Shown: positions 1 through 64,000 of the stretch, one piece after another
Numbering within the stretch: the stretch's first letter is position 1
Layout: every line of letters begins with the position of its first letter
Virus record (IMG/VR): IMGVR_UViG_3300025674_000018
Reading direction: 5' to 3' (one strand)
Source of the DNA: an uncultured virus (IMG/VR IMGVR_UViG_3300025674_000018)
Lineage: Duplodnaviria; Heunggongvirae; Uroviricota; Caudoviricetes; Kyanoviridae
Length of the DNA stretch: 64,000 bases
Notes under the pieces: generated by a model
Databases searched by the model: none
What the model was told of the DNA's origin: nothing
The model's input: the letters and a program-made list of their open reading frames with translations, nothing else
Translations under genes and position numbers: made by a program

Positions 1-39
1 GACTTCTCAGTTAGTAAGGGCGATACAATTACATTAGAG

Positions 40-1305
40 GTGGTGAGTATCACTCAGGGTCCTTTTGCTGGATCGGTCAGTCCCAAGATGTCAATCTTTG
101 ATGAGGCGACTCAACTGTTTGAGGGTGCGATGACCATCAGGTTGATGACAACCGCTGGCGATACTGATTCATATCCCATTCCATATCAATTGGGTAACAA
201 GGATGCTCTCCCGACAGATGGTCAGGTCAGAGGTATGGATATGCAACTGGCAGTATTGACTGGTGAAGATGGTAAGAATGGTGGTGATATTGTTTGGAAT
301 CTCACTGAGATGTATAAGATGTATGAGAATGGTGCGTTGGTTGACACTGACAACGAGTATGCATCCAAACTCACATGGTCCCAGAGAATGAATGGGATGA
401 ATAGAGGTTGGAATTACACCACTGGTAGCAGATATGGTGCTTACCTAGACTCATTTGGTATTGACTCTGGAGATGTCAGGCAGCACTTTAATAAGTTGAC
501 AACATCAGACTTGTTTAAGGATGGTAAGACTGGTAGACACAAGGTAGAGCCCAACCTTGCTGGAAGTAATACTAAGAATCACATCGAAACCCCTTACAAC
601 TACGCCAGACTTGCTAGATTCTCTGACAATGCAACTGTCTGGTGGGATGAGTCTGCCACTCGCTATGGAAACTCCACAACCAACAGTGAGATTCTAGATG
701 ATTTGTATGATGGCATCAGTCAAAACAATACGTTTGAATTCTATGAGCCTGGATACTTCATCCAAGACTATTACTTAGTCGATGATGATGCAAAGGATAA
801 GATTGACTTCACTAGGACTGCAAAGATTCGTGTGGGTATTACTTTCTATCCATACTCAACTGGTGCTTCTCTGACAACCTTTGGTAAGGCATACCGCAGG
901 AGCAACTTCTATGCTATAGTAGAGTTGCTTGAAGTCCTGAATGACGGTTATGGTTACTCGGAGGGTCAGGAGTTTGATCTTAAATGGCCAATTGATTACG
1001 AAAAGAAACAACGTAAGTGGGCAGACCAAGGCACTCCATCCCAGGTAGCAGATGACATCTTCTCCCCATTCCATCCGAAGCACCACAAACCAAACACATA
1101 TGGAGTTAACACAACATACAAAATCCCTCAAGAAGTTGGTATCTCCTATGAGTATCAAGATAAATATCAGGACACTGGCAAGAGTCCAGTAAGGGATGCA
1201 TTATATCAAGAGTCCCACAACAAACAATCTATGGTATGGTATCTTCGTAGGACAGATCCCAAAAATCATATCCATTTCAAAGTAAGAGTGAGCGATGTAT
1301 CATGA
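40..1305 (+). CDS. Putative virion structural protein (5' end probably outside the window)
   Basis: Long ORF that appears open back to the window edge; no recognisable catalytic motif. Confidence 0.55.
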   Translation: MVSITQGPFAGSVSPKMSIFDEATQLFEGAMTIRLMTTAGDTDSYPIPYQLGNKDALPTDGQVRGMDMQLAVLTGEDGKNGGDIVWNLTEMYKMYENGALVDTDNEYASKLTWSQRMNGMNRGWNYTTGSRYGAYLDSFGIDSGDVRQHFNKLTTSDLFKDGKTGRHKVEPNLAGSNTKNHIETPYNYARLARFSDNATVWWDESATRYGNSTTNSEILDDLYDGISQNNTFEFYEPGYFIQDYYLVDDDAKDKIDFTRTAKIRVGITFYPYSTGASLTTFGKAYRRSNFYAIVELLEVLNDGYGYSEGQEFDLKWPIDYEKKQRKWADQGTPSQVADDIFSPFHPKHHKPNTYGVNTTYKIPQEVGISYEYQDKYQDTGKSPVRDALYQESHNKQSMVWYLRRTDPKNHIHFKVRVSDVS

Positions 1306-1685
1306 GTGAAGGTTTCGGTGAATCTATTATCCCAACTAGCCAGGCAAAGCGTCATGCTGATTGGGCAGAGAGGAGTCTTGAAAAGTCTTCTAAAGAATTA
1401 AAAATGCTTCGTAGAGTCATTGAGCAATACAAGGATGACCCAAAGGGTCGTGCCAAGATGCTCAAGAAGATGAAGAAGTATTGGAGCAGCAACGTTGCTA
1501 CAATTAAAAACCTTGACTACAAACCCAAGGGAGAAGAATTCTGGGCGAATGTTGAGAATCAGATTCTCGATAAGCGTCAGGAGTTGACTGATCAGGAGGT
1601 AGAGGAGAATGCACCTCCGTCTCCTATCGAGATGGCAACGGAAGACATGCAGGCAATTCGAGAGTATTTGCAGGCAGAAGAATGA
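1302..1685 (+). CDS. Hypothetical protein
   Basis: 127-aa ORF with ATGA overlaps at both ends. Confidence 0.7.
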   Translation: MSEGFGESIIPTSQAKRHADWAERSLEKSSKELKMLRRVIEQYKDDPKGRAKMLKKMKKYWSSNVATIKNLDYKPKGEEFWANVENQILDKRQELTDQEVEENAPPSPIEMATEDMQAIREYLQAEE

Positions 1686-2824
1686 AAGTCGCTGTGATTG
1701 GCAGAGGATCGTCTGGTTTAATCACGACGATGAATCTTCTTGCCTATGGAATTCAAGTGGACGTTTATTACGATCCAAGCATACCCCAGTTACCTGTGGG
1801 TGAATCTACAACACCACAATTTCCAGATCTCATTGAGAAGACTCTTGGATATACAAGGAAAGATCTCTGTGATCTGGGTCTTGCATCGATGAAATATGGT
1901 ATTGAGTTTGATGGTTGGGGTAAGAGTGGTGAAGTCTTTACTCATGACTTCATCTTCTCAGATGCTATTCACTTCTTCACAAAGGATCTCAACCCATTCC
2001 TGTGTGAGAAACTAGAAGAGAAGGGTGTCCGTTTCATTTCCCAACCCGTCAGAAGTCCCGAAGTCCTTTACGAATCATATGACTTTGTGATATCATGTGC
2101 TGGGTTTGATGAGAAGTTTCGTATTCCCATCAAGCTTCCCACAGTTAATTCTGTGGTATACTACACAGAGGAATTGGATCCTGATGTCTTAGACCCTCAG
2201 TATACCAATCACCTTGCCCATGAGAATGGATGGAAGTTTACACTACCATTTCCAAACCTGGGTATTTGTCGTAGTGGATTCCTCTATAAGAGGGAGCACC
2301 TATCTGAAACCATCGCTCTGACCTATTGTCCAGAAGATGCAAAGGTGCTAAAATGGACACCATCATACTCCCCAAGTATGATTGTCTCAGACAAACTGGC
2401 ACTCAATGGAAACGCCTTGCTTTTCTTTGAGCCACTGCAGGCACTGTCTCTATTTCATTATGACTTCTTTGCTAAAAGAATCATCCAGTATCTCTGGCAT
2501 GGATCTCGTAGTGAAGTGTCAAAGATGAATGCGAATCTAACATACCGCCGTGCAGTTGAAGCATATTTGGATGCCCTTGCTTTCCATTATCAATTTGGAT
2601 CGCAATATGCTTCGTCATTTTGGACTGATGTATCCACTTACTCCCGTCAGAGAGTTGCTGATCGCTGGTGGAATTCACCAGCAGTTATCAATGAAGCATA
2701 TTCCGTCTGGTCTCGCAACAGAAAGTCTCCTGAGTGCTGTGACAAAGATTTCTTTTATGCTCCTGACCATACAGAGATCTTCGGGATCACCTGTATGTGG
2801 CAACTCCAAATGGGTTTAATGTGA
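1682..2824 (+). CDS. Tryptophan-halogenase-family FAD-dependent enzyme (short, divergent)
   Basis: GRGSSG FAD motif, VGESTTP, Lys in ASMKYGIEF, FFEPLQA; WxWxIP degenerate (GWKFTLP). Confidence 0.8.
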   Translation: MKVAVIGRGSSGLITTMNLLAYGIQVDVYYDPSIPQLPVGESTTPQFPDLIEKTLGYTRKDLCDLGLASMKYGIEFDGWGKSGEVFTHDFIFSDAIHFFTKDLNPFLCEKLEEKGVRFISQPVRSPEVLYESYDFVISCAGFDEKFRIPIKLPTVNSVVYYTEELDPDVLDPQYTNHLAHENGWKFTLPFPNLGICRSGFLYKREHLSETIALTYCPEDAKVLKWTPSYSPSMIVSDKLALNGNALLFFEPLQALSLFHYDFFAKRIIQYLWHGSRSEVSKMNANLTYRRAVEAYLDALAFHYQFGSQYASSFWTDVSTYSRQRVADRWWNSPAVINEAYSVWSRNRKSPECCDKDFFYAPDHTEIFGITCMWQLQMGLM

Positions 2825-2883
2825 AGTTGTAAAACTTCATATATATTATGTAACACTGATGATCCCTCAACTACTCGGATCTG

Positions 2884-2892
2884 TGCTACAAT
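2884..2892 (+). promoter_or_regulatory. Extended -10 sigma70-type promoter (TGcTACAAT)
   Basis: Lies about 80 nt upstream of the 2971 ATG. Confidence 0.55.
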
Positions 2893-2970
2893 ACACAGGC
2901 GGTCGGGAAGTCGATCCGACCCACCATCTGCGGGTAACCATTCCGCAAGAAACTTAACGAGGAAATTCAA

Positions 2971-3342
2971 ATGATCAAATCTTTCATCGCTGCAGCTGCT
3001 GCTGCCCCCCTGTTTGCTGGCGCTGCTTTCGCAGGTCCCTATGTCAACGTGGAAGCTAACTCTGGTTTTACTGGTAGCAACTACAGCGGCACCGATATCG
3101 ACACCCATGTGGGTTACGAGGGTGCTCTGGGCGAGTCTTCTTCCTGGTATGTCCAAGCTGGCGCTACCATCGTTGCTCCTGACAACGGTGCTACCGACAC
3201 CGTGCCCTCTGGCAAGGCTGGTCTGGGCGTGGGTCTGACCGACTCCCTCTCCGCTTACGGCGAAGTGTCCTTCAAGGGCTCGGGCGTTGCTGGTGTTGAC
3301 CGTAGCTACGGCACTAAGGCTGGTCTGAAGTATAGCTTCTGA
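2971..3342 (+). CDS. Small outer-membrane beta-barrel protein (host-like)
   Basis: Ala-rich signal peptide, amphipathic strands, C-terminal GLKYSF beta-signal, AGGA Shine-Dalgarno. Confidence 0.75.
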   Translation: MIKSFIAAAAAAPLFAGAAFAGPYVNVEANSGFTGSNYSGTDIDTHVGYEGALGESSSWYVQAGATIVAPDNGATDTVPSGKAGLGVGLTDSLSAYGEVSFKGSGVAGVDRSYGTKAGLKYSF

Positions 3343-3365
3343 TATAATATAGTCAACTAAATACT

Positions 3366-3388
3366 GGGGTCTTAGGACCCCTTTTTTT
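3366..3388 (+). terminator. Rho-independent terminator
   Basis: GGGGTC-ttag-GACCCC followed by T7. Confidence 0.9.
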
Positions 3389-3404
3389 ATTTCTGGAGGT
3401 AAAC

Positions 3405-3656
3405 GTGTCTAAAACCCCATCGCACACAGCAATTTACACTCGCCCAGGTTGTCCATATTGCACCAAGATCAAAGAGGTGTATAATATGAATGGTTGGTCC
3501 TTTGCTGAGTATGTGCTCAACACAAACTTTACTAGGGATCAATTCTACGCTGAGTTTGGTCAGCGTGCTACATTCCCACAAGTTATTGTTGGTGGTAGAA
3601 AAGTCGGTGGATGCACCGAAGCTGTTAAATTTCTGAGGGAAAACAAGTATCTGTGA
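3405..3656 (+). CDS. nrdC: Glutaredoxin
   Basis: CPYC active site, TFPQV, VGGC; GTG start with GGAGG. Confidence 0.92.
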   Translation: MSKTPSHTAIYTRPGCPYCTKIKEVYNMNGWSFAEYVLNTNFTRDQFYAEFGQRATFPQVIVGGRKVGGCTEAVKFLRENKYL

Positions 3657-4036
3657 TGAGCCAAATTAACACCCATGAATTGTATGAGTTGGTTGATCGA
3701 GCGATCGACTCTGCGTTTGCTGATGACCGATACATCTTTAAGATGTACGACTACTTGAAACTGGGTAAGTGGACTCGGCGTGATACACAAGAGTTTATCG
3801 AATCCCCCACGGCAGCCAGGTTAAGTGAGTTGGTCATGGACCTGGAAACATATACCAAAGGGAAGGATAAATTTCTCAAGGAAGCCTACGCACATCTAAC
3901 GAAACAGCAGGCCAAGAAGTTAAAGACATACTTTTATGGTATGCTGGAAGACTCCTGGAAGTATGCTGCCGAGCGAAAGCCTGGACGCAAACCTGGGACG
4001 AAAAATAAAACAACTTCCCGAAGGAAGACTAAATAG
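3653..4036 (+). CDS. Conserved cyanophage hypothetical protein
   Basis: Overlapping ORF with basic RKPGRK tail; usual position after nrdC. Confidence 0.7.
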   Translation: MMSQINTHELYELVDRAIDSAFADDRYIFKMYDYLKLGKWTRRDTQEFIESPTAARLSELVMDLETYTKGKDKFLKEAYAHLTKQQAKKLKTYFYGMLEDSWKYAAERKPGRKPGTKNKTTSRRKTK

Positions 4037-4066
4037 TTATTGACTGGACAAATTAGGGGGCAACGT

Positions 4067-4297
4067 ATGCAGGACTTATCCTTTCTTTATATTGCCTTCT
4101 TCCTCACGATTGGAAGTTTCTTTATTGGATTCTTAGTATCTTGGAATGTAAAGGATGTCTTTGATGTTTGGATCGCCAAGGCAGACTACGCAGCAATTAA
4201 GATGCACCCCGAAATGTATGAGGATGGAGAGTTAACAGACCAGCAACTTCTTTACCTGCGTATCGATAACGATGTATTTGATGACGAGGATGATTGA
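4067..4297 (+). CDS. Small membrane protein (DUF2973-like)
   Basis: N-terminal TM helix, HPEMYEDG..LLYLR; start moved to ATG after AGGGGG. Confidence 0.6.
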   Translation: MQDLSFLYIAFFLTIGSFFIGFLVSWNVKDVFDVWIAKADYAAIKMHPEMYEDGELTDQQLLYLRIDNDVFDDEDD

Positions 4298-4737
4298 TGA
4301 AACTTATGATCTCTGAAGTGCTACAAAAAGCACACAATGCAAAAACAAAACAAGAGAAGATCAAGATCCTCAGAGACAACAATAGTAGTGCTCTGAGGAC
4401 TATCTTCATTATGAATTATGATGACAGCCTGAAACCGAGAGTCCCTCTTGGTGAGGATGTGCCTTACAAACCTAATGATGCACCCCAGGGGACAGAGCAT
4501 ACTGTCCTTGAGACCCAAGCAAGTAAGTTTTACTATTACTTTAAGGGTGGGGCGGATCATCTCCCTCAGATGAAGATTGAGACGATGTTTATTCAGACAT
4601 TGGAAGGTCTTCACAGTGAAGAGGCACAGGTCTTGGTTAAGGCAATCAATAAGTCCCTTGGTAAGCGTTATAGGATCACCAAGGCAGTTGTTGATGAAGC
4701 ATTCCCTGAGATCATCTGGGGAGGTCGTGGTGCATGA
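4294..4737 (+). CDS. Conserved T4-like phage hypothetical protein
   Basis: ISEVLQK...MFIQTLEGLH.EEA pattern. Confidence 0.7.
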   Translation: MMKLMISEVLQKAHNAKTKQEKIKILRDNNSSALRTIFIMNYDDSLKPRVPLGEDVPYKPNDAPQGTEHTVLETQASKFYYYFKGGADHLPQMKIETMFIQTLEGLHSEEAQVLVKAINKSLGKRYRITKAVVDEAFPEIIWGGRGA

Positions 4738-5012
4738 GTGTCTACTTCGACCCTAGGAGACCCAGGGAAGAGGGACAAACCATCTCACTCCCTGAGGCAG
4801 AAGATCTCATCAAACAACTAGAGGAGAAAGAGAAGATTGAGATGGGCAAGAAAGTTGTTGCCGCTCTCACTAGACTCTTTGTTAGTCCTGTGATTCTTAT
4901 GCTAGTCTGGAATTGGTTGATGCCTGGACTGTTTGGTCTGGCAACTATCGGTTACCTCAAAGCGTTTGGTCTTGTTGTAATGTCCTCAATCCTCTTTAAT
5001 CGTAATGACTAA
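4734..5012 (+). CDS. Hypothetical membrane protein
   Basis: Two hydrophobic segments (WNWLMPGLFGL). Confidence 0.65.
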   Translation: MSVYFDPRRPREEGQTISLPEAEDLIKQLEEKEKIEMGKKVVAALTRLFVSPVILMLVWNWLMPGLFGLATIGYLKAFGLVVMSSILFNRND

Positions 5013-26556: not shown

Positions 26557-26826
26557 ATGAAGATAAGGGTAACAAGCAATTATGCAATCATCGAAGAGGT
26601 AGGGATTGTTAAACTCTACAAGATATGTGGAATCCCTTACACCTTCGATGAGTTACCCAAAATCATTCAAGACGATCCAGAAGTCCAGCTTGACGCAGCC
26701 ACAACTACGTCATATACCATGGAAGACCTCTATCGTATGTCCTACTACTTGGTCGCTGAAGAGTGTCATCCACTACTCTTCCCGATGGAAGACATGATAG
26801 AAAATTTTGAAGAAGTGCCTGATTAG
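26557..26826 (+). CDS. Hypothetical protein
   Basis: Abuts the previous gene; stop codon lies inside tRNA-Thr. Confidence 0.6.
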   Translation: MKIRVTSNYAIIEEVGIVKLYKICGIPYTFDELPKIIQDDPEVQLDAATTTSYTMEDLYRMSYYLVAEECHPLLFPMEDMIENFEEVPD

Positions 26827-26890
26827 CTCAGCTGGATAGAGCAACGGTTTTGTAAACCGTAGGTCGTCGGTTCAAGTCCGACATCAGGCT
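26817..26890 (+). tRNA. tRNA-Thr(TGT)
   Basis: Acceptor GCCTGAT/ATCAGGC, anticodon arm ACGGT-ttTGTaa-ACCGT, GTTCAAGT T-loop. Confidence 0.95.
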
Positions 26891-26892
26891 TT

Positions 26893-26979
26893 GGAGAGTT
26901 GTCCGAGTGGTTTAAGGAGCAGCACTGGAAATGCTGTATGGGGGCAACCTCATCTAGGGTTCAAATCCCTAACTCTCCG
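26893..26979 (+). tRNA. tRNA-Ser(GGA)
   Basis: Acceptor GGAGAGT/ACTCTCC, CAGCA-ctGGAaa-TGCTG, long variable arm. Confidence 0.95.
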
Positions 26980-26985
26980 TCCCAT

Positions 26986-27057
26986 TCCTCCTTAGCACAG
27001 CGGTAGTGCAAACGACTGTTAATCGTTGGGTCCCAGGTTCGAATCCTGGAGGGGGAG
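26986..27057 (+). tRNA. tRNA-Asn(GTT)
   Basis: Acceptor TCCTCCT/AGGGGGA, AACGA-ctGTTaa-TCGTT, GTTCGAAT. Confidence 0.95.
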
Positions 27058-27058
27058 C

Positions 27059-36203: not shown

Positions 36204-37013
36204 ATGGCACTACTTAGAGTTAATCAAATTCAAGACCCATCAGGATCTGTAGGTTTTACAGTTAGTAACTCCACAGTGAGTGTGAGTGGTACTTTGACCG
36301 TTAACGATCTAGTTGTCAATGGCACTATTACTGGGTCATCTTCTTATATTGTGCCATCTCAAGCAGGTCAAAGTGGTGCATTTTTAAGCACCGATGGCAC
36401 TAATCCTACCTGGTCACCATTGAGCACCAGAGCAGGAATCCGATCAATGCAGGTATTTACTGCTAATGGCACATGGACCAGACCATTTGGATGTAAAAAC
36501 ATCATGGTCACATGTGTTGGCGCAGGTGGGGGTGGGTCAGGTTACTGCGAAGCAGGCGGTGCTGGCGGCATGTCCCAACGACAGGTTGATGTTACTAACA
36601 TCGCATCTGTTTCCGTTACTGTTGGTTCTCCTGGTGGTGGTAACAACTATTCTGGTTGTGGTGGTAACGGAAACACTTCCTCTTTTGGATCTTATTGCAG
36701 TGCCTCTGGTGGTATTGGTGCTAACTGCTCTCAGCAGCACGCTGGAGGTTACGGTGGCAATGGATCTGGTGGAGCTCTAAATGTCCATGGTGGCGGTGGT
36801 AATGGTCACGGATCGCACCATAGTTATGGTAACTATGCTTCTGGCGTTAGTTATTATGGTGGTGGACAACCCGCAGGTCACAACCAAGTTAACTGGTCAC
36901 ACAGACACGAATTGCACGCTGCTTGGGGTGCTGGTGGTAACGGATCTCGCCATAGTAATAGAGGCGCTAGAGGTCGTGAAGGTATCGTGGTTATCCACGA
37001 ATACTGGGGTTAA
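36204..37013 (+). CDS. Glycine-rich tail adhesin-like protein, paralog A
   Basis: NGTWTRP, VGAGGGG, GNTSSFG, GIVVIHEY. Confidence 0.75.
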   Translation: MALLRVNQIQDPSGSVGFTVSNSTVSVSGTLTVNDLVVNGTITGSSSYIVPSQAGQSGAFLSTDGTNPTWSPLSTRAGIRSMQVFTANGTWTRPFGCKNIMVTCVGAGGGGSGYCEAGGAGGMSQRQVDVTNIASVSVTVGSPGGGNNYSGCGGNGNTSSFGSYCSASGGIGANCSQQHAGGYGGNGSGGALNVHGGGGNGHGSHHSYGNYASGVSYYGGGQPAGHNQVNWSHRHELHAAWGAGGNGSRHSNRGARGREGIVVIHEYWG

Positions 37014-37039
37014 TAAATAAATCTAGGATCTGAAACACC

Positions 37040-38629
37040 ATGAGTCTACTCAAAGTATCTTCAATTAGCGACCTCACCGATACAGGTGGTTTCCAACTTT
37101 CTAACGGTGGCATCACTGCAACGCTGCCTCTTGTGGTTGGTAACCTTATCCTGAATGGTGCTATTATCGGAGAGTCCAATCACATTATCCCCAAACAGGG
37201 TGGTAATGCAGGAAGACTTCTTCAAACAGATGGCACATCGATGGCGTGGGTTGATCAGGCAGGTGTGTCTGGTATTAGATCGATGCAGGTCTGGACAAGT
37301 AATGGCACCTGGAATAGACCTAACGATTGCACGTCAATCATGGTCACAGTTGTTGGCGCTGGCGGTGGTGGATCAGGATACTGTGAAGCAGGTGGTGCTG
37401 GTGGAATGGCACAAAGAGTTATTGATGTCAGCAATGTTACTTCAGTTAGTGTTACTGTTGGTAATCCTGGTGGTGGCAATAACTATGCTGGGTGTGGTGG
37501 TAACGGTAACACGTCATCTTTCGGATCCTATTGCAGTGGCGCTGGTGGAGGCGGATCTAATTGTATTCAGCAACACGAAGGTGGATTAGGGGGAGAAGGT
37601 ATTGGTGGTACACTAAACGTCTACGGTGGAGGCGGGAATGCACATGGTTCCCACCACAGTTATGGAAACCACGCTGGTGGCGCAAGTTACTACGGGGGAA
37701 GTCAACCGTCATCCCACAGACAAAGTAATTACTCCCACAGACATGAAGGTCACTCGGCATGGGGTGCTGGTGGTAACGGATCTCAGCATAGTAACCGTGG
37801 TGCCTCTGGTCGCCAAGGTGTTGTTGTGGTCCATGAGTATTATGGTAGACCATCTGCTGCTGATACCACTTACGGCACAACTGAAGCAACTGCTGCCCCT
37901 TCTGCTCAAGAAATTAAGAGAAGAAATCCTGGTGCATCTGATGGTGTTTACTGGATCGCCCTGGATGGTGGTCGCACCAGACAAATCTATTGCTTGATGG
38001 ATGATCGCTGGTTGGGTGGTGGTTGGATGATGGGTATGAAAGCGACCCGTGGCACCACATTCCAATGGGGAGCAAATTACTGGACAAGTGATAACGTCCT
38101 CAACGAAACTCAGTACAATACCAATGATGGTGATGCCAAATTTGAGGTCATGAATAGATTCGCTGCCAAGGACATTATGGCGATTTGGCCTGATATTGGC
38201 AGCGGAGGTTGCGTCCCTAGTAGTAATCGTGGTTGGACATGGTTTGAGACTGACTTCAACACAGGATATGGACGTGGTGGTAGAATCTATCCCATCAACT
38301 TCTGGAATGAGGTTGATAGATTCTACAAGACTAATGCCAATGAATTCTGTGGTATCAATAACTTCTCTGGTCAATCGCACGTTAGATTCTATGGTTTCAA
38401 CTATAGAAACAATGGTGGGTGGGCACGCACACGTTGGGGATTTGGATGGAATGAAAACGGTGGTGGATCAGGTGGTTATCCTGAAGCAGACATGAACTCT
38501 GACGACGTGTCAGGTGGTATTGGTATGAGTAGTAACTTCGGTAACTACAGTGCTGGTGATAGAATCAGTTGCTGCCAAAACCGCACTGGGATAAATAGAT
38601 CTGCAAGGGTGGAGTTGTATTTTAGATGA
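37040..38629 (+). CDS. Glycine-rich paralog B with C-terminal fibrinogen-like domain
   Basis: Same Gly-rich domain, then SAQEIK..DGVYWI..IYCLMD..GGGWM. Confidence 0.75.
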   Translation: MSLLKVSSISDLTDTGGFQLSNGGITATLPLVVGNLILNGAIIGESNHIIPKQGGNAGRLLQTDGTSMAWVDQAGVSGIRSMQVWTSNGTWNRPNDCTSIMVTVVGAGGGGSGYCEAGGAGGMAQRVIDVSNVTSVSVTVGNPGGGNNYAGCGGNGNTSSFGSYCSGAGGGGSNCIQQHEGGLGGEGIGGTLNVYGGGGNAHGSHHSYGNHAGGASYYGGSQPSSHRQSNYSHRHEGHSAWGAGGNGSQHSNRGASGRQGVVVVHEYYGRPSAADTTYGTTEATAAPSAQEIKRRNPGASDGVYWIALDGGRTRQIYCLMDDRWLGGGWMMGMKATRGTTFQWGANYWTSDNVLNETQYNTNDGDAKFEVMNRFAAKDIMAIWPDIGSGGCVPSSNRGWTWFETDFNTGYGRGGRIYPINFWNEVDRFYKTNANEFCGINNFSGQSHVRFYGFNYRNNGGWARTRWGFGWNENGGGSGGYPEADMNSDDVSGGIGMSSNFGNYSAGDRISCCQNRTGINRSARVELYFR

Positions 38630-39435
38630 GCACTATACGAGTAACCCAAGTTAGAGACCTCGCTGGTATCTCTGGATTTACACTAACCACTGGTGGCATC
38701 ACCGCAGAGGCATCATTGACCTGTGGCGACTTGACCATTAACGGCACAATTACTGGCACTTCCAAGTATATTATTCCAAGTATGAGTGGTCAGGCAGGAA
38801 AATACCTGCAGACAAATGGCACGAATCTTTCCTGGGGTAATGTTTCTTCCACATCTGGATTCAGATCGATGCAGGTCTGGACAGGTAATGGCACCTGGAG
38901 TAGACCCTCAGACGTTAAATCCATTATGATCACCGTTGTTGGTGCTGGTGGTGGTGGATCTGGGTATACTGAATCTGGTGGCGCTGGTGGTATGTCTCAG
39001 CGTGTTTTAGATGTTACTAACATCGCATCTGTTTCCGTTACTGTGGGTAATCCTGGTGGTGGCACAAACTACTCAGGATGTGGTGGCAATGGCAACACAT
39101 CTAGTTTTGGTGGTTATCTGTCTGCCTCTGGTGGTGTTGGCGCTAACTGCTCCCAACAGCACTCTGGAGGTTATGGTGGTAATGGATCAGGTGGAAACCT
39201 GAATGTCCACGGTGGTGGTGGCAATGGTCACGGATCTCACCACAGTTATGGCAACCACTCTGGCGGTAGATCTTATTATGGAGGATCTCAACCGTCCTCA
39301 CATAGACAAGGTAATTATTCACATAGACACGAAAACCATGCTGCCTGGGGTGCAGGTGGCAATGGATCTCAGCACAGCGATAGAGGTGCTAGAGGTCGTC
39401 AAGGTGTTGTTGTGGTCCACGAGTTTTACGGTTGA
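38626..39435 (+). CDS. Glycine-rich tail adhesin-like protein, paralog C
   Basis: 269 aa and colinear with paralog A. Confidence 0.75.
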   Translation: MSTIRVTQVRDLAGISGFTLTTGGITAEASLTCGDLTINGTITGTSKYIIPSMSGQAGKYLQTNGTNLSWGNVSSTSGFRSMQVWTGNGTWSRPSDVKSIMITVVGAGGGGSGYTESGGAGGMSQRVLDVTNIASVSVTVGNPGGGTNYSGCGGNGNTSSFGGYLSASGGVGANCSQQHSGGYGGNGSGGNLNVHGGGGNGHGSHHSYGNHSGGRSYYGGSQPSSHRQGNYSHRHENHAAWGAGGNGSQHSDRGARGRQGVVVVHEFYG

Positions 39436-50076: not shown

Positions 50077-50682
50077 ATGGCAACAAACGCACAACTCGCT
50101 GATCAACTCTTTCGCCTGATTCCTGCCGCTCTCAACCTCACCACCCAGCGTCTTTCTAAAGGTCTCAGCATCATCTCTGGCGGTCGTTATGGCGATCTCG
50201 ATGAGTATTTTGGTGAGAATACTGTTGACAAGACTAAACTGCTTGCCAACATCTTCAACCCTGCTCTAGAGGATGCTGCCAAGAATCTCGGAGTTGATTA
50301 CATCACCGAAGAGACTACTGGTTATGATGCTATCCTGTTGCAGGAAGAGTTGGAGAATAAACTGACACTGGGTCAGGATACTTCATCCTTCGCTACTGGC
50401 AACAACCACAGCAAGACTAAGGTTGATAAGGTCTTTGTCTGCAAAGTGCAGCAGGTTGGTAACATCTTCCCTCGTTGTTTCGCTGCTATTGTTGACCTCT
50501 CCCTCGCCACTAATGAGGCGACTGGGTGGACTGACAGCGTTACAAAGACTGGCAAGAATAACAACGGTTTCAGCAAACTGCAGATCCACAAAGATGATGC
50601 TGCTTGCATTACTGTGATCTATGGTAAAATCAGAAGCACCACCAAGTTTATCCACACCGAATATGAAACTCTCGCTCAATGA
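50077..50682 (+). CDS. Candidate PD-(D/E)xK endonuclease
   Basis: GYDAILLQEELENK (D...ExK); overlaps the methyltransferase start. Confidence 0.45.
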   Translation: MATNAQLADQLFRLIPAALNLTTQRLSKGLSIISGGRYGDLDEYFGENTVDKTKLLANIFNPALEDAAKNLGVDYITEETTGYDAILLQEELENKLTLGQDTSSFATGNNHSKTKVDKVFVCKVQQVGNIFPRCFAAIVDLSLATNEATGWTDSVTKTGKNNNGFSKLQIHKDDAACITVIYGKIRSTTKFIHTEYETLAQ

Positions 50683-51502
50683 TACTTACCTGATGAATTG
50701 CATCGATGGGATGCAACTCATGGATGAGGAGAGTGTGGATCTAGTGATCACCTCTCCTCCCTACGATGACCTGCGGACATACAATGACAGCAGCAAGTGG
50801 GACCATGAGGTATTCAAGAGGGTAGCAGATAGCATCGTCAGGGTATTGAAACCTGGCGGTGTTATCATGTGGAATGTCAACGACGCAACGGTAAAAGGTA
50901 GTGAAACTGGTAGTAGTTTTCGTCAGTGCCTATACTTTATGGATGCTCATGGTCTCCGTCTACATGATACTATGATCTATGAAAAGACAGGCACAGCATT
51001 TGCTTCTGGTCCTAATAGCGTGAGATATACTCAAATCTTTGAGTATTGTTTTATCCTCTCCAAGGGCAAACCTAAGACCATCAATCTTATCCAAGATAAG
51101 AAAAATGCATGGGCAGGTTATACTTCCTTCGGAAATGCTAAAACCAGGCGCAAGGATGGGACAATGCATGACCCAGGCAAGAAGAGCAAAGAAATCAGAG
51201 AATATGGTGTAAGGACCAATATTTGGAAGATTAAGAATAGCGGTGGGTTTGGACAATCATCCAAAGAGTCATACAAACACCCTGCAACCATGCCTGAGGA
51301 GTTAGCAAGAGGTCATATTATCACCTGGAGTGATAAGAATGATGTGGTGCTTGATCCTTTCATGGGTAGTGGCACAACTGCTCAGGTGTGTATAGAAGAG
51401 GGCAGGAAGTTTATTGGTTTTGAGATTGATCAAACTTACTGTGAAATGGCACAGAAACGTGCTAAACTTTGCAAACCTCACCTATTGACAATTCTCACAT
51501 GA
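50663..51502 (+). CDS. Beta-class amino DNA methyltransferase (probably N4-cytosine)
   Basis: VITSPPY (motif IV) before HPATMP and VLDPFMGSGTT (motif I). Confidence 0.92.
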   Translation: MKLSLNDTYLMNCIDGMQLMDEESVDLVITSPPYDDLRTYNDSSKWDHEVFKRVADSIVRVLKPGGVIMWNVNDATVKGSETGSSFRQCLYFMDAHGLRLHDTMIYEKTGTAFASGPNSVRYTQIFEYCFILSKGKPKTINLIQDKKNAWAGYTSFGNAKTRRKDGTMHDPGKKSKEIREYGVRTNIWKIKNSGGFGQSSKESYKHPATMPEELARGHIITWSDKNDVVLDPFMGSGTTAQVCIEEGRKFIGFEIDQTYCEMAQKRAKLCKPHLLTILT

Positions 51503-55700: not shown

Positions 55701-57546
55701 CAGTCAGACAACCTGCACACAAAATGAGCACAGGCACCTGATCTGTGCAAATATACTCTCACAACAAACAAAACGAATGACCAACCCCATCTCCATTGAT
55801 TACACCAAGCGCCTGGATACTGTCGCCTATTGTGAAGATATCTGGATCGAGGAAGATTCTATCTGGGTGGGTGAGAATCGTCTCGCTGCTTTCTCTATCA
55901 CTGCAGATTACTCTGAGGATGAGGGAAACTATCGTGTAAATGCACGTCGTCGTCAAGATCTTGCTGATGGCAATACTGTGTGGATCTATCCGCGCATTGC
56001 GGGATTCGATACTGTTGCCGAGTGCAAAGATTTCATCGTTGAGTATATCAACACCGCGCCATGTGTTGCTATCTTCAATGATCAACATGTGAAGGCACTG
56101 GATGCACTGATCGCATGACAACAGTGATACTTGGTGCCCTCATCATCCTCTGGTTTTTCACACCTCTCAATAAATGATTTCAAACTCAATGTTTAACTCT
56201 GCACTCAAAACTCTTCCTCAATTCATTACATCCACTGATGCAGATTGGGGTCAGGTTTATGACTACATGGAGAGCATGTGTGGTGATCTGAAAGATTATC
56301 ACTGGGAAGAAGTTGCCTCTGTCTATCGTCAATTCATCAACGATTCACGTTACTGATTTACATCATGAGATTCGTACTCGCTGGTTTCGTTCTTGTCATT
56401 GGTGGCATGATTGGTGTCTCCGCTATTGATTCAGTCAACAAAATGCAGGACAGTAAGATGGAGCGTTTTTGCAAACAAATCCCTGTAGGTGCATCCTATG
56501 ATGACGTTTGCGCGAGGTTTAGAAAGTAAAATTGTGCCAGTTGGCACACTGTCCACTTTTCTGGCACAGACCCCCAAAATGCCCTATATTCAATGTCGTG
56601 GGGGGGATCGCACCTTCCACATTCACTCTAACTCCAAAACCATGCGTAAGATTGAAAAGCAAATGAATCAGGCAATCGCTGATTCTATCAACTGGCAATC
56701 TGGTAACACTTCTGTGCAATTTGATGAGCAAGATAATGTGTCTCGTGTATATCTGCACGGCAATCATATCGCCACTGTGAGTGATGATTGTGTGCAACTG
56801 TTTGATGGTGGTTGGCAGTCTGTGACCACTAAATCACGCCTCAATGCTATCTGCGACGCTAATGCAATCGCTGGCGAAGGTGTATTTCAAAAGGATCATG
56901 TTTGGTATGTGCGTCAGTATAACAACAGCACTCAATCTTTCGAGGTTGTGCCATTCTATTCTGGTCTGAATCTTGGTGAGTCTGCTCTTCCTCTTGCTGC
57001 CTGATTAAATGGCACGACGTAAGTATCTGACCTTCAAATCACCCAACAAAATGAAAGTCATTGGTCTAATCTTCATTGTTTCTTTCTTCATCTTCCCTGG
57101 TGTAAGATATAACACAGGCGAAGCACTTCACCTCACTGCTGATCTCATTCAACGCACCACACGATGACACAAACTGTCCGCATTGAAGTTGAAACCTACG
57201 ACGAATGTCGCACTATTTGGTATGAAAAGACTCGCCTAAAGAATCCCACTGATGTAATTTGCAAACGTGTAGGTGAGCAACTCTCAGGATTAAATCTTCA
57301 CCGCGTTACTGTTACTCTCGCCCCTGCTACTGTTTAACAACAATGCATTTCCAAGTTACTGCAATCGAGTTTGACTTTGAAGATGATAGTTTTCCTGAAG
57401 TAGATTCAGACTATCAAGAGAAGGTAACTGATGAAGCAATCGGTGAAATCTGGGAGGCAGATGATGGTGATGATCTAATCGAAGAGATCACAGCAGCAAC
57501 GGGTTGGTGTATTAAATCCATTGACTATCGTCATGTGCTCGTATAA
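52711..57546 (+). CDS. Array of about 20 small early hypothetical ORFs (52711-52881, 52969-53247, 53244-53492, 53558-53743, 53743-53946, 53943-54143, 54136-54324, 54328-54501, 54621-54872, 54908-55159, 55231-55491, 55470-55700, 55777-56118, 56115-56177, 56174-56356, 56365-56529, 56642-57004, 57009-57167, 57164-57337, 57343-57546)
   Basis: All on the + strand, tightly packed behind repeated promoter cassettes; several read manually and absent from the track. Confidence 0.6.
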
Positions 57547-58595: not shown

Positions 58596-59430
58596 GGTAA
58601 GTATCAACGAAAGAATTCAGTTGATGATTATGCCCAGGGAGACTACGAGTCATGATTGATCCTAACACCGATTGGATTGACGAGTTTCTGAGTGAAGAAG
58701 CAGAGGACGATCTAGACCTCTATGATGATAGTGAAGGACCTGAATTCTCTGAGGATATTAGAGGAGACTGGTCGTGAGTAATACTATCCAACTCCAAACA
58801 ATTCCTCCTGTTGATATAAGAGTATGGGAGAAGAGTAGGAAATACTTTTGGGCATACAATTACGATGGTTGTCCTAAGTATGGTCCATTCAAATCACAGC
58901 AACTCGCTATCAATGATGCAAAGCAATTCTCAGGCGTATGAGTGACACCTACGGCAGCAAGATCGCCTCTATTCCTAATAGTCTAGAGGCACTCCTTGAT
59001 CTATACGATGAGGGACAATTACCACCACAAGAGCAAGTCGAATTAGCACAACAGTTAATAGACCTGGACCTTGATGATTACCTCACACAGTATCAACAAT
59101 TCTGTGACTATTGCATTGCTGAAGGGTTATGCTATGATGTGCATGTTGGGGACTATTAGTTACTCTGAGAGCAGTGTATTCTTGGGGGTGATGGTGTATA
59201 TTAAAAACGCATAAGTCCCTAACCTACAAAAGTATAGCATCGACCTCGATGTATCTCCCCATATTATCAAAATGAAACTACGGGTCCCCCCCTCTGAAAA
59301 AAATTTTGAGGGTATAAAAACTCCCCTCAGAGTCACGCCAAGAGAGCAAATAGAATATATTTCAATAACCCTCTCAGAGACTCTCAGGATCGCCTACAAG
59401 GCACTTGTAACACGCTTCAGGGGTAAGTAA
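58464..59430 (+). CDS. Small hypothetical ORFs (58464-58655, 58652-58777, 58774-58941, 58938-59159, 59272-59430)
   Basis: The first four are chained by ATGA/GTGA overlaps. Confidence 0.55.
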
Positions 59431-59504
59431 CCCACTCATACAGTATTTGCAATTTTGTCAAATATTGTTTTGTCTACATACACATGACAGGTATTGCAAA
59501 ACCT

Positions 59505-59675
59505 ATGAGTAAAAGATACACAATTCCAGTGGAAGAAGATGAGCATGGAGAATGTTTCATCACCCTACCCGAAGAGTTACTCGACGAGACTGGATGGGTC
59601 GAAGGAGATCTCTTAGAATACACAGAGGAGATCGATGGGTCGATCTACATTAAGAAGGTTGAGGAATCTGAGTAA
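59505..59675 (+). CDS. AbrB/MazE/SpoVT-family DNA-binding protein
   Basis: ITLPEELLDETGWVEGDLLEY..DGSIYIKK. Confidence 0.75.
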   Translation: MSKRYTIPVEEDEHGECFITLPEELLDETGWVEGDLLEYTEEIDGSIYIKKVEESE

Positions 59676-59715
59676 TTTCAAAAACCGCGAAAAACCAAAA
59701 CCGCGTTGAGCATCT

Positions 59716-59997
59716 ATGAATCCTATCAACTACAACACATCCTCCACCCCAGATGGGGTTGTCATCACCCCAGATATGAGTGATACTGATCAGTTGGCGT
59801 ATCTGTTAACACAGGTGGGTAAGGCAATTGAGAATCTATCCAAGCGAGTGGCGATATGTGAAGGTGCTCTACAGAAACTCCCTCCGCCTTCGGCGGATAT
59901 GATTCAGTATAAACCTCAAGGGGCGGACGAATATCTCAACATGAAACAGATCTTTGATGATCTGTATGAGCGACTAAATAAATTGGAAGCTCAATAA
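59716..59997 (+). CDS. Hypothetical protein
   Basis: QYKP...LDDLYERLNKLE-type coiled-coil end. Confidence 0.6.
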   Translation: MNPINYNTSSTPDGVVITPDMSDTDQLAYLLTQVGKAIENLSKRVAICEGALQKLPPPSADMIQYKPQGADEYLNMKQIFDDLYERLNKLEAQ

Positions 59998-60002
59998 ATT
60001 GA

Positions 60003-63000
60003 ATGCCCGCCTTTATTCTTGAAACAGGTCGCAGTTTCCCAAACCCGATCGATGGGGAAGATTATGAGAGACCTATGTTTGACTACGATGGGTCAGCATA
60101 CACTCTCTCCTTTCTCGATGAGGGTCCTGGGTCGATGCCGCTTGGCAAAGATAATGTGCATTACATTGGCGATGAAGAGCCTACCTGTGTAAGTAATTGC
60201 GATTTCGAGAGACAACCAATATATCGTTGGTATCGTGGAGCAAAATACGATCACAAATACACACACCGAGATCAGTTAAGACAAGAAGATGCTGTCGGTG
60301 ATAATGAATCGTGGCGTAAAGTTTTAAGAGGATATAACCCTGAGCCTAGACAGGGTGATATTCCTGTGTTTTTTATTATGAGGACACAAGTCCAAGGATC
60401 GGTGCCGCTGTATTCTCATTACAGAGGTAAAAGTAATGATGATTCGATTCTTACATTATCTGCTACACCCCCTGCAAGTGACAATAGTGCGCCGTATCGA
60501 TATGTCTCAAAGTTGGGATATGTGTTTACGACTCCTGGTGCTGCAGCAGACTACCTAGGGAGTGGTGAATCTATCCTACCACTGTATCACTATTTCAAAG
60601 ATAACGTCATTCATAGCGGCACACCCGAGTCTGACAACTTCTATACCACTACACCTGCTGGCGAAGTCAACCTGAGTGGCGGTCCTATCGCCCCCAAAGA
60701 CGCCATGAATGGCGAATATGAGTATCAGGGTATCCTCTGCTATGTTTTTGGTGGTGACGCACCTGATGCAGGCAGTAAGAGAATTATCGATATTGGTAAG
60801 ATTGGTCCTACAGGGCAGTGTATTGACAAGTCTGGGTGGTATGCATGGAATACTACTACCCACTCATACCTCAGATATCGCAGAAATAGTGACATTGGTG
60901 TCCCTGCTGTCGATGGATATGGATGGCCATTGAATGATAACGTTGAAGGTGGTGGATCTGGTGTTACCATTCTCAATGAAGAAGCACGTTTCGAGTGGTT
61001 GTATGGTCTGAATGGTGCCATCAAGGGCGCTGTGCCACGCTTCCTAGGGTTTCAATATGGGTATGACTCCCAATTCATGTATTACCTGTATGACACAACC
61101 TACCCCTGGAATGGTCCGATCTTTGGCATTCAGTATGAATTGAGTGATAGAGCATGTTGTCCAAACGCAACTTGCACCTCAGAAGGTGCTCAGGGGTCTG
61201 GCGCTTCAAGGTCATATCCTTGCTGCATACCCAATACCGACTTCTATTCGCACTTCTATCAGATCAGAGAGGATGCATGGAAGACTACAAAGTCCAAGAT
61301 TACCCTAGAAGGACCTGGGGGTAGTGGTCTAGAGGAGTCGTTTTCCACTGCTGGCACTGATGATAGGCGTATCTTTTTCCGCTATACCTCATCTTCGGGT
61401 AGTTTTAAGAAGGGTGAAATCTTCCAAGGGTGGTTGATCAACCGCGTTTTCTACTTTGGAGACAAAATGAAGTGCGGTTATATGGACCTATCGCGCTATG
61501 AAGGTGTAGATGGCAACAAATTTACCTACCAACAGGCGATTACTGCGGCAGATGGTGCTACTGCAGTGGTCTTGGCAGGGTATGGCATCGCAGATAAGGT
61601 CGCATTTTGGGGTGTTTACGAGTTTGAGAAGAATATTCAATACTATAAAGTCAAGATTGACCCTCAAGCATTGATACCAACCCGCACTTTGGACCTTGCT
61701 GAGGCAGAAGCAGTGGTCAATACCCAGGGTGAAGTGGTAGAAATCAACATCATCAACGGTGGAGTAGGGTATATCAACCCCCAAATCGTCATTTCCGACC
61801 CACAAATCCTCGAAGAATTCTCTGCACAAGACACTGCAGAGGGAGTTAGGCGTGGATTCAAGTCACAATACGAGGAAAACACCAATCAATTCCCACAATT
61901 GGAGACAAATCGCACTGGATCTTCCCAACAGAGACGAGTTCTTAACAAAGTAGCGCAAGGTTATAACAAAAGATCGCGTGAATTTGACACAGTTTTGCAA
62001 TATAAAGCAGCAGAAGCGAAAATCACGGACATTTCTCCCTCGGGAATCATCAGAAAGGTCACAATTATCAATCGTGGCAGTGGTTATGACCCCCAAAACC
62101 CGCCAGTTGTCTATATTGCCGAGCAAGGATTGCAAGTTGAGGCAGAATCTAAGCTCGATAACGAGAGTATTCGCAAACAACCCGATGCTTTGAGTGGGAT
62201 GTTGGACTCAGATACGCTTGGAAAGGACATGACACCCTTCCAAGACATCATTAAGCAGAGTTTTGGCGTTTTGACTGAGGGGAATAAGACAAATATTCCA
62301 ATCACATACATGGAATTGGCGGAAGTTGACCCAGATGGTCAATTTGCTTTCTGTCAAGCACTCCCTGCTGACTGTATTGACATCACAATGGGGATGCCAT
62401 TGACAAAAGCCTTCCCTCCAAGCGGAATGTTTGACGTTTTGAATGTAAATTCTGGCGTTGCTGAATATCAGAGCAAGTATCACTCGGAAATTCAGCAAGA
62501 TATTCAGACAGCAGAGAAAACTACCGATGCTTTCAACGGTTTGTATGGTGCTTTTGGCGGAAATCGCTGCATTTACGTCGATCAACCGATTATTTACAAT
62601 ATCAAGAAGTGGTTTCAGATGCCATGTGCCTATATGGCAGCGGATGAAGACGAAGAATCACGCACATATGGCAAAACAGTCGCTTTTGGTTACCTCCCAT
62701 ACAAATATTGTGCGCCAAAAGACGAGGAAGCGCAATTCCAAGTCAATTTGAGCATTGAAGGGACCACAACTGGATCTCAGGGTCAGCAATTTATGGAATT
62801 TTTGAATGGCTTACCGAAACCACGCTTGACTGAGCGTAGAAAAGTGTCTGGTGGCACAAAAACTTGGAATTGTAGTCGTGGATCTGTCTCAGGTCGTTGC
62901 TATCGTGATCCAAACAACAACAATGACCTAATTTTCGTCCCAACGGGATCTGATGAAAATACGTTTGACTATAATCGCAGTAATTTCACAGAATTAGAGC

Positions 63001-63632
63001 AATTCCAACTTTGGCTGGGAGATAACGTCGAAGGATACACTCCAAACTCCACTTATGGGTTCTGGACCACATATTCTTACAGTCCCACAGATCCACTTGC
63101 CGATGAAGAAGGTTTTGTGGAGGGGCAGGACAGCGCAGTCTACACTTCTATCCGTGTTAACGATAATGAGTGTCCTACAGACCCTCTAGGCATCCCTGAG
63201 GACTGCTGGGACCGCTATGTGAGGAAGGGATCTAATACAGATGGTCCTTTGGACGTATTTTGTGGTTATGACGCAAATGGTAATGGTCTTCCTGGTCTAA
63301 CTTACTACGAAATCACTCCACCAACTTCAGCGACTCCATATTCGCTCTTCTTCTCTCAGCAAGACAACAGTGGCACTGGATTGTGTAATGGATGTGTTGC
63401 ATTGGAGAGTGTTGCGGACGTTTCCATCGCTATTGACCCTAGTAGGATCACCCAAGGTAAATATAGAATGAAGATGGGTCCATATTCGGGCACATTCAAA
63501 GTTTTGAATTATTTGTCGGGTGGCACAACTGCACTTAGTAGGACAATCCGAAATTTGGGCAATCCATATTTCGATGAATGTCAAGATCAGTATCCATACG
63601 ACATTGGCAGATCATTGGAGGGAGTAACCTAA
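60003..63632 (+). CDS. Large virion structural protein
   Basis: PLYHY-type repeats, INGGVGY/NRGSGY motifs, late promoter upstream. Confidence 0.75.
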   Translation: MPAFILETGRSFPNPIDGEDYERPMFDYDGSAYTLSFLDEGPGSMPLGKDNVHYIGDEEPTCVSNCDFERQPIYRWYRGAKYDHKYTHRDQLRQEDAVGDNESWRKVLRGYNPEPRQGDIPVFFIMRTQVQGSVPLYSHYRGKSNDDSILTLSATPPASDNSAPYRYVSKLGYVFTTPGAAADYLGSGESILPLYHYFKDNVIHSGTPESDNFYTTTPAGEVNLSGGPIAPKDAMNGEYEYQGILCYVFGGDAPDAGSKRIIDIGKIGPTGQCIDKSGWYAWNTTTHSYLRYRRNSDIGVPAVDGYGWPLNDNVEGGGSGVTILNEEARFEWLYGLNGAIKGAVPRFLGFQYGYDSQFMYYLYDTTYPWNGPIFGIQYELSDRACCPNATCTSEGAQGSGASRSYPCCIPNTDFYSHFYQIREDAWKTTKSKITLEGPGGSGLEESFSTAGTDDRRIFFRYTSSSGSFKKGEIFQGWLINRVFYFGDKMKCGYMDLSRYEGVDGNKFTYQQAITAADGATAVVLAGYGIADKVAFWGVYEFEKNIQYYKVKIDPQALIPTRTLDLAEAEAVVNTQGEVVEINIINGGVGYINPQIVISDPQILEEFSAQDTAEGVRRGFKSQYEENTNQFPQLETNRTGSSQQRRVLNKVAQGYNKRSREFDTVLQYKAAEAKITDISPSGIIRKVTIINRGSGYDPQNPPVVYIAEQGLQVEAESKLDNESIRKQPDALSGMLDSDTLGKDMTPFQDIIKQSFGVLTEGNKTNIPITYMELAEVDPDGQFAFCQALPADCIDITMGMPLTKAFPPSGMFDVLNVNSGVAEYQSKYHSEIQQDIQTAEKTTDAFNGLYGAFGGNRCIYVDQPIIYNIKKWFQMPCAYMAADEDEESRTYGKTVAFGYLPYKYCAPKDEEAQFQVNLSIEGTTTGSQGQQFMEFLNGLPKPRLTERRKVSGGTKTWNCSRGSVSGRCYRDPNNNNDLIFVPTGSDENTFDYNRSNFTELEQFQLWLGDNVEGYTPNSTYGFWTTYSYSPTDPLADEEGFVEGQDSAVYTSIRVNDNECPTDPLGIPEDCWDRYVRKGSNTDGPLDVFCGYDANGNGLPGLTYYEITPPTSATPYSLFFSQQDNSGTGLCNGCVALESVADVSIAIDPSRITQGKYRMKMGPYSGTFKVLNYLSGGTTALSRTIRNLGNPYFDECQDQYPYDIGRSLEGVT

Positions 63633-64000
63633 TGCCATTCGGATTAGTAAAACCAGTTGCAGCATTAAATGGTCTTCCTTGCTCAGGACACGGATTGTGT
63701 TTGCCTCCTGTGGTCCATAGCACTCAACCATGTAAGTCACCACCAAAACCTAGGACTATTCGTATCAAAGAATATTCCTGTTGGTGGCCACCTTTGAATC
63801 TAATACCGATTTTCCCAATCACACCAGATAGGGCAACTGTTTTGGTGCATGGATTCCCAATTATGCTGGCAGGAGATAAGTTTATTCCACACCCGAGCAC
63901 CTGCACTAACATTATCGTCTATATGTGCCCCTGTGGCAACGCTGTGTGCCCCGTGCCGACCCCTATTCCATGCTCTGTGCTAACTCTAGAGGATAAGGGC
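63632..64000 (+). CDS. PAAR-like spike-tip protein (runs off the window)
   Basis: MPFGLVKPVAALNGLPCSGHG...TVLVHGFPIMLAGDKFIPH; TAATG overlap; not in track. Confidence 0.7.
   Translation, partial: MPFGLVKPVAALNGLPCSGHGLCLPPVVHSTQPCKSPPKPRTIRIKEYSCWWPPLNLIPIFPITPDRATVLVHGFPIMLAGDKFIPHPSTCTNIIVYMCPCGNAVCPVPTPIPCSVLTLEDKG

Follow-up and report, generated by a model that had tools for sequence, protein, structure and literature searches.

A nuclease–methyltransferase gene pair accompanies the loss of GAAC, GTTC and GTAC from T4-like marine cyanophage genomes

Chloroviruses encode Type II restriction-modification (R-M) systems, among them CviQI, which acts at GTAC, and CviAI and CviAII of PBCV-1. 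Their accepted use is an attack on host DNA from which viral DNA is exempt. Bacteriophage T4 breaks down host DNA with EndoII and EndoIV and shields its own DNA with hydroxymethylcytosine. Bacterial genomes are said to avoid the sites of their own R-M systems, as Gelfand and Koonin (1997) and Rocha et al. (2001) reportedly found. Host systems also drive restriction-site avoidance in phages, whose genomes lose short recognition words synonymously; Rusinov et al. 2018 (PMC6286503) is a survey of such avoidance. Here we describe a 64,000-nucleotide stretch of DNA (the window) from an uncultured virus of the Kyanoviridae (IMG/VR record IMGVR_UViG_3300025674_000018), which is depleted of GAAC, GTTC and GTAC on both strands over its whole length (1–64000). 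It carries two adjacent genes on the plus strand, one for a 201-residue protein with a predicted restriction-endonuclease fold (50077–50682), the candidate reader of the purged words, and one for a β-class N6_N4 DNA methyltransferase (50663–51502).

The pair is probably a phage-borne Type II R-M-like cassette that reads GAAC, GTTC and GTAC, and whose sites the phage has purged from its own genome. As in the chloroviruses, one of which has an enzyme reading GTAC, a lytic virus would combine a four-base cutter with a methylase. However, the host here is bacterial and the nuclease family is undescribed. In addition, the proposed word is degenerate and no plain palindrome, and protection would come largely from purging rather than from methylation alone. 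As in bacteria that avoid their own sites, the genome that carries the enzyme would be the one that loses them, but this is the genome of a virulent phage and its depletion (0.06–0.19 of expectation among carriers) appears far stronger than the bacterial one. Like T4, a T4-like phage with active nucleases has to distinguish its own DNA from any other, although no modified base is implied here; absence of the word, with methylation of the few remaining sites, would distinguish self. The synonymous loss of short words resembles host-driven avoidance, but in these cyanophages it is a phage gene, rather than the host, that the depletion tracks; the terms cyano, Synechococcus and GTAC do not occur in the main text of the paper on such avoidance (PMC6286503). 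Full-text literature searches found no published account of this avoidance or of the cassette.

A preliminary description of the window, made from its letters alone, had claimed a window-wide avoidance of the three words alongside abundant GATC, and this is confirmed by counting. The window contains 27 GAAC, 18 GTTC, 12 GTAC and 406 GATC, against 252, 232, 242 and 242 expected from base composition; a maximal-order Markov model expects 254 GAAC, 234 GTTC and 174 GTAC. As a codon control, synonymous codons were shuffled 200 times within each gene, which preserves every protein and each gene's codon usage and covers 91.4% of the window. The shuffled sequences contained 195.3 ± 9.0 GAAC, 223.2 ± 10.9 GTTC, 165.7 ± 10.3 GTAC and 333.5 ± 12.2 GATC (mean ± standard deviation), and the lowest counts in any shuffle were 169, 195 and 134 for the three avoided words. 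Observed/expected ratios against the shuffles are 0.14 for GAAC, 0.08 for GTTC, 0.07 for GTAC and 1.22 for GATC, with z-scores of −18.7, −18.8, −15.0 and +5.9, respectively. The avoidance thus survives a codon control that the preliminary description had itself proposed, and no ratio near 1 was seen for the three words. GATC, at 406 copies vs 334 expected, is abundant, as claimed. This mild excess is at least partly a by-product of GTTC replacement, because the GTTC of relatives is often GATC in carriers of the gene pair (17 of 213 aligned sites).

None of these words occurs before position 3745, as had been noted; the earliest is a GTAC at that place. The possibility that the empty 3.7 kb at the start has a meaning of its own was rejected, as chance allows a largest gap of ~4.5 kb. 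The 57 remaining sites are evenly distributed along the window (chi-square, 8-kb bins, p = 0.15).

The closest named relative is Cyanophage P-TIM40 (Kyanoviridae, Libanvirus; host Prochlorococcus NATL2A), which a distant-mode nucleotide search aligned at ~75% identity across 7 kb of structural genes; a megablast of the window against named phages gave no match. Four syntenic relatives were compared (P-TIM40, S-SZBM1, S-WAM1 and P-RSM6). A purge of CCGG, GGCC and RGCY is common to all of them, and only P-TIM40 also shows the purge of GAAC/GTTC and GTAC (0.06 and 0.18 of expectation); in the other three GAAC stands at 1.12–1.20. The window and P-TIM40 share the gene pair after a helicase gene, with the nuclease followed by the methyltransferase, and the other three relatives do not have it at that place. 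A tblastn search with the 50077 protein against 50,697 phage records found homologs in 17, including those of P-TIM40 (gp059), S-MbCM6, S-MbCM25, S-MS29, S-RIM4, S-H35, Syn10 and Syn9 (gp61). In every named-phage locus examined the methylase gene directly follows the nuclease gene, and the named carrier loci from this search are depleted (GAAC 0.14–0.19, GTAC 0.20–0.36).

The comparison was extended to 65 sequences of at least 8 kb, namely the window, nine named-phage loci and 55 of 80 IMG/VR helicase loci, the other 25 being shorter than 8 kb. All 11 carriers of the pair are depleted, with GAAC/GTTC at 0.06–0.19 and GTAC at 0.01–0.36, vs 0.75–1.54 and 0.00–1.24 in all 52 sequences without it (Mann-Whitney p = 2e-7 for GAAC/GTTC). 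The preliminary description had called for a comparison with related phages; in the event, depletion tracks the phage gene pair, GAAC/GTTC being depleted in 11 of 11 carriers and in 0 of 52 non-carriers. When k-mers were pooled over 379 kb of carriers and 942 kb of non-carriers, GAAC/GTTC had ratios of 0.12 vs 1.15 and GTAC of 0.20 vs 0.76, and these were the two tetramers that separate carriers while being undepleted in non-carriers. CCGG has an equally low ratio (0.12) but is purged in both groups alike. Every flanking context is depleted at least 2-fold, T-GAAC-A most of all (5 vs 415). The depletion is genome-wide in a complete 186-kb carrier genome (G007), which has 160 GAAC/GTTC vs 1458 expected and 133 GTAC vs 527.

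Carriers do not form a single lineage. In a helicase tree they fall into at least three clades, mixed with non-carriers, and the pair label needs seven changes, of which at least five are forced by well-supported branches. Syn9 (GAAC/GTTC 0.15), for example, is sister to a contig that has no pair within 10 kb upstream and a GAAC ratio of 1.05. No nuclease homolog was found in the whole records of six named non-carriers.

Alignments of orthologous genes show how the sites were lost. Where a non-carrier has GAAC, GTTC or GTAC, the carrier keeps the word in 0–18% of cases, vs 20–66% for control tetramers. Across seven aligned pairs, which are not independent since the window is the carrier in four of them, replacements at former sites hit all four positions. 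GTAC most often became GCAC (26 of 96), and the commonest single change at former GAAC sites was C to T at position 4 (73 changes, 204 aligned sites). Because the replacements touch all four positions, the pattern speaks for selection against the word itself rather than for the decay of one base.

The 50077 protein belongs to PHROG 11812 (phrog_11812, 1e-89) and is a homolog of Syn9 gp61. Among 28 members of the family, none matched a Pfam family at E ≤ 5, and a profile search of the family against solved chains found nothing at E ≤ 10. One distant homolog of 93 scanned matched RE_Eco47II, but its 20.3 bits fell short of the 25.9 cut-off. By these scans the protein does not belong to a curated restriction-enzyme sequence family. 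A language-model similarity search placed it near virus-rich clusters containing RE_ScaI (21% of members) and RE_NgoBV (90%) with a score of 0.92, which serves as a lead only. Its 98 close homologs all lie in phage-like sequence, and a search with a single distant homolog in genome contigs gave no match.

The residues expected of a restriction nuclease are nevertheless conserved. A G-Y-D84 ... E93-x-K95 pattern, the PD-(D/E)XK signature, is invariant in 28 homologs together with two further blocks, and in a wider set of 40 homologs, with identities as low as 20%, conservation of D84, E93 and K95 is 90% or higher. In an AlphaFold2 model (predicted local distance difference test (pLDDT) 88.2, predicted template modelling score (pTM) 0.85), D84 and E93-x-K95 lie on strands 84–87 and 90–98, so that the catalytic D...(D/E)-x-K motif falls on consecutive strands. 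Comparison of the model with 48,161 chains using VIA-align gave NaeI as the top match (Z = 9.1, root-mean-square deviation 4.1, 156 residues aligned), followed by SfiI (7.2), BglI (6.9), SwaI (6.8), 3ndh (6.8) and DpnI (6.4) and then by BcnI, NhoI, NlaIV, MvaI, EcoRV and MspI. A Z below 8 can reflect a common arrangement, but here the top match lies above 8 and the list is one-sided, ranks 1–17 all being nucleases. As modeled, the protein has the restriction-endonuclease core fold. It shares this fold and the order of the D...ExK residues with NaeI and the EcoRV/PvuII-like branch of PD-(D/E)XK enzymes (PDB 1ev7, 1eo3, 1ni0 and 4esj), and differs from them in its low identity (4–13%), in the lack of a Pfam or profile match and in its small size. 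Promoter hits around the cassette were uninformative (12 vs 10.9 expected).

The methylase open frame extends from 50621, with a likely start at ATG 50663 that gives a 20-base overlap with the end of the nuclease gene. The product contains the N6_N4 methyltransferase domain (PF01555, 5e-44), and its motif IV reads V-I-T-S-P-P-Y. Adenine enzymes have D-P-P-Y at this place, and the best solved relatives of the methylase are cytosine-N4 methyltransferases (8s9n, 1.6e-17). Domain and S-P-P-Y motif together point to a β-class enzyme of the N4-cytosine type. Such an enzyme could mark both strands of GAAC/GTTC, because each strand ends in C. The methylase gene lies directly downstream of the nuclease gene in 11 of 11 carriers of the window clade, so that the two genes are adjacent and inherited together, as in R-M systems. 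Among carriers the methylase is the more conserved of the two (77–96% identity vs 53–81% for the nuclease).

A distant branch of the nuclease family (25–29% identity) was found only in uncultured viral contigs. Its 17 loci have a median GAAC ratio of 0.42 (range 0.04–0.82), with GTAC at 0.49 and GATC at 0.48; the strongest case (L090) has GAAC at 0.04, GTAC at 0.11 and GATC at 0.08. The nuclease family as a whole goes with the loss of GWWC, and the window clade spares GATC. A Dam-like methylase was considered as the reason for this sparing and rejected, since PF02086 occurs in all five genomes tested, including that of a member of the GATC-purging clade. An SPPY methylase follows the nuclease in 6 of the 17 loci. 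In two members of this branch a further SPPY-type methylase gene lies just upstream (L095:9115–9909 and L091:8843–9781), such that the nuclease gene is flanked by two methylase genes.

We propose the following mechanism. The depletion, its tie to the cassette, the modeled fold and the motifs are observed, whereas it is inferred that the cassette cuts DNA, which word it reads, which base it methylates and what it is used for. A small PD-(D/E)XK nuclease of an undescribed family (the 50077 protein) would be translationally coupled to an N4-cytosine-type methyltransferase. Since carriers lack GAAC, GTTC and GTAC, these are the words that the nuclease would read, which amounts to GWAC on either strand, or to GWWC without GATC. 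The nuclease would cut unmethylated DNA containing these words, be it host DNA, the DNA of rival phages, or both, and its EcoRV-like fold would lead one to expect blunt ends. A T4-like phage makes hundreds of genome copies so fast that methylation would be an unreliable shield for every new site, and the sites would have been purged for that reason. Selection would have removed about nine in ten of them through synonymous and some amino-acid changes, leaving the methylase to shield the rest. The preliminary description had offered, as one of two explanations, a phage nuclease cutting at this motif, with the 50077 protein as candidate. That suggestion has gained comparative data, a modeled fold, a catalytic motif and the finding that presence of the gene predicts depletion, while the cutting itself stays a prediction from sequence and model. 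Syn9 and P-TIM40, two laboratory models that carry the cassette, are reported to break down host DNA (PMC6708340).

Several points weigh against this mechanism. The link between word and enzyme is correlational, and independent contrasts give it weak support: of five on well-supported branches, three go in the expected direction, none in the opposite one and two show no difference (sign test p = 0.25). Two truncated contigs of the 65, L045 (0.25) and L011 (0.33), are depleted with no pair in their whole records (a positive control was run). On the upstream side of the helicase gene these records extend for just 1,721 and 70 bases, the pair being 5–6 kb upstream in the nearest relatives, and the two are counted neither as carriers nor as non-carriers. 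GTAC is strongly depleted without the pair in L033 (0.00) and L031 (0.09), and something else could account for some of the signal at GTAC. In the second clade, the nuclease gene stands without a neighbouring methylase gene in 11 of the 17 loci, and yet the purge there is only partial. Purging ought to be superfluous for a phage with a functional methylase, so that the kinetic argument given above is required to account for so strong a depletion. There are 57 sites left in 64 kb, 34 of them with a free synonymous alternative. With regard to the fold, Foldseek returned no solved structure at E ≤ 0.001, its best match being NaeI at 7.5e-3 with the same enzymes listed. Finally, P-HM2 is also reported to degrade host DNA (PMC7852597), and tblastn found no nuclease homolog in its record, so the cassette is not the sole route to host DNA breakdown.

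Of the alternatives, the one that survives best regards the cassette as a shield. Hosts or rival phages would have restriction of the same specificity, and purging and a captured methylase, taken up with its nuclease, would be parallel protections. The association of pair and depletion fits this equally well, the stronger conservation of the methylase agrees with it, and other cyanophages carry other nuclease–methylase cassettes, S-H38 for example. We nonetheless consider it unlikely. No substitution of the catalytic residues occurs in 28 diverged phage homologs of the nuclease, which indicates that the nuclease has been kept working, and none of the 98 phage-like close homologs carries a cyanobacterial name. 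Of 17 marine Synechococcus and Prochlorococcus strains, only 4 have active defences that can be recognised (PMC6708340). Moreover, a phage that always methylates its own DNA gains little by purging against an outside enzyme.

It is considerably less probable that the methylase is itself the cause, methylated GWAC being harmful, either through modification-dependent host nucleases or because its bases are prone to mutation, and so decaying or being selected away. All 11 carriers of the window clade have the methylase, and the prominence of C-to-T changes at position 4 of GAAC agrees with this reading. Yet changes occur at all four positions, and the top replacement of GTAC, GCAC, spares the cytosine. 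The 11 second-clade loci that have no methylase beside the nuclease are partly depleted all the same, and a harmful methylase would simply be lost.

Marginally weaker still, and strongly disfavoured, is the other explanation in the preliminary description, a host defence that reads GWAC, in the form of Dnd-type phosphorothioate-dependent restriction at GAAC/GTTC and, at GTAC, of a system of the RsaI type. In its favour, Dnd has GAAC/GTTC as a motif, RsaI has GTAC as its site, and GTAC alone is depleted in some phages without the pair. A host cause would make avoidance follow the host, but phages matched for host differ completely in four of four pairs. Their GAAC/GTTC ratios are 0.06 for P-TIM40 vs 1.12 for P-RSM6 on NATL2A, 0.17 for S-H35 vs 1.19 for S-SSM5 on WH8102, 0.14 for S-MS29 vs 1.34 for S-H38 on MW02 and 0.18 for S-MbCM25 vs 1.30 for S-M1 on WH7803. 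What the depletion does follow, in three clades or more, is a phage gene. All 11 carriers have lost GAAC and GTAC jointly, which would not be expected from two independent host systems, and a host cause is less likely because active defences are uncommon in these hosts (the same 4 of 17 strains; PMC6708340). No supporting point was found for an artefact stemming from base composition, codon usage or the amino acids encoded, and such an artefact is already refuted by z-scores of −15 to −19 against shuffles that preserve proteins and gene codon usage, and by relatives of the same GC content with observed/expected ratios of ~1.1–1.2.

GAAC, GTTC and GTAC are not the only words missing from the window. 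Overlooked in the preliminary description, CCGG is absent (0 vs 92 expected from the codon shuffles), and GGCC (7 vs 83), AGCT (40 vs 199), GGCT (19 vs 155) and AGCC (40 vs 108) stand at 0.08–0.37 of expectation, AGCT, GGCT and AGCC together making up RGCY. This purge of CCGG, GGCC and RGCY is found in nearly all sampled cyanomyovirus loci, with or without the 50077 pair, the exceptions being L029, L036 and L044, and it is odd given the rarity of restriction systems in the hosts. The hexamers GTGCAC, TTTAAA, ATTAAT, ACTAGT and GCATGC are also absent from the window, where the shuffles expect 5–23 of each.

Word depletion takes other forms in other cyanophages. GTAC alone is strongly depleted (0.00–0.30), with GAAC normal and no 50077 homolog in the locus, in L033, L031, L068, L077, L051 and L079; in some lineages GTAC is avoided for a separate reason. 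The NATL2A phages P-TIM40 (L001) and P-RSM6 (L004) have 0–2 copies of CGCG and GCGC vs 10–32 expected, words only mildly depleted in the window (0.48 and 0.79). S-M1 (L117) has GATC at 0.19 despite a gene annotated as a DNA adenine methylase, with GAAC normal (1.30). In the same early region, S-H38 (L116:37882–39448) has a gene annotated 'restriction endonuclease II' followed by one for a protein with an N-P-P-Y methylase motif, and it is without TTTAAA, GATATC, AGTACT and GTGCAC.

Many of the sites that survive in the window are constrained. Glu-Pro, spelled GAA-CCN, accounts for 17 of the 27 GAAC, and its alternative spelling GAG-CCN would make AGCC, itself a purged word. Three of the 18 GTTC (26870, 26959 and 27037) lie in the T-loops of tRNA-Thr, tRNA-Ser and tRNA-Asn genes on the plus strand (26817–27058). 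Glu-Pro codons and T-loops are where the preliminary description had located many survivors. The only two intergenic survivors, GTAC at 56374 and GTTC at 56389, are 15 bases apart (56374–56392) in the gap between the open frames at 56356 and 56489, and one further site is locked by adjoining avoided words. A free synonymous alternative exists for the 34 sites mentioned above. Among other purged words, five of the seven surviving GGCC encode Trp-Pro, which has no other spelling. Both dipeptides are themselves scarce in the window (Glu-Pro 34 vs 50 expected, Trp-Pro 5 vs 13).

In overall gene content the window, with a GC content of 43.8%, is that of a T4-like marine cyanomyovirus. PHROG and Pfam scans identified gp32, gp5, baseplate, tail-fibre, CpeT, CP12, PhoH and thymidylate synthase genes, as well as three tryptophan-halogenase-like genes and many 2OG-Fe(II) oxygenases. 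Three consecutive tail-fibre-assembly paralogues (PHROG 863) lie at 36204–39435, the middle gene being double the length of the others, and a small open reading frame in the early region (59484–59675) encodes a MazE-type antitoxin domain (PF04014, 4e-6).

Avoidance of words by phages is usually read as the footprint of host restriction, whereas here it points to the phage's own gene, in phages whose hosts mostly lack restriction systems. It also gives a predicted recognition word for an undescribed family of restriction enzymes, and a degenerate four-base word would be of practical interest. The cassette is a candidate means by which cyanophages whose DNA is unmodified could escape harm as they degrade other DNA, and word avoidance offers a route to recognising conflict between phages in the composition of their genomes. 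More tentatively, marine T4-like cyanophages may tell self by vocabulary. Each lineage would carry a small four-base nuclease, drawn from several unrelated families and with or without a methylase, against its host and co-infecting rivals, and would be safe mainly through genome-wide erasure of the word. The window would then represent a new family with the non-palindromic, degenerate word GWAC (or GWWC sparing GATC); a sister clade purges all four GWWC words. If this is true, the patchwork of purged words in cyanophages testifies to an arms race that phages wage with one another more than with their hosts.

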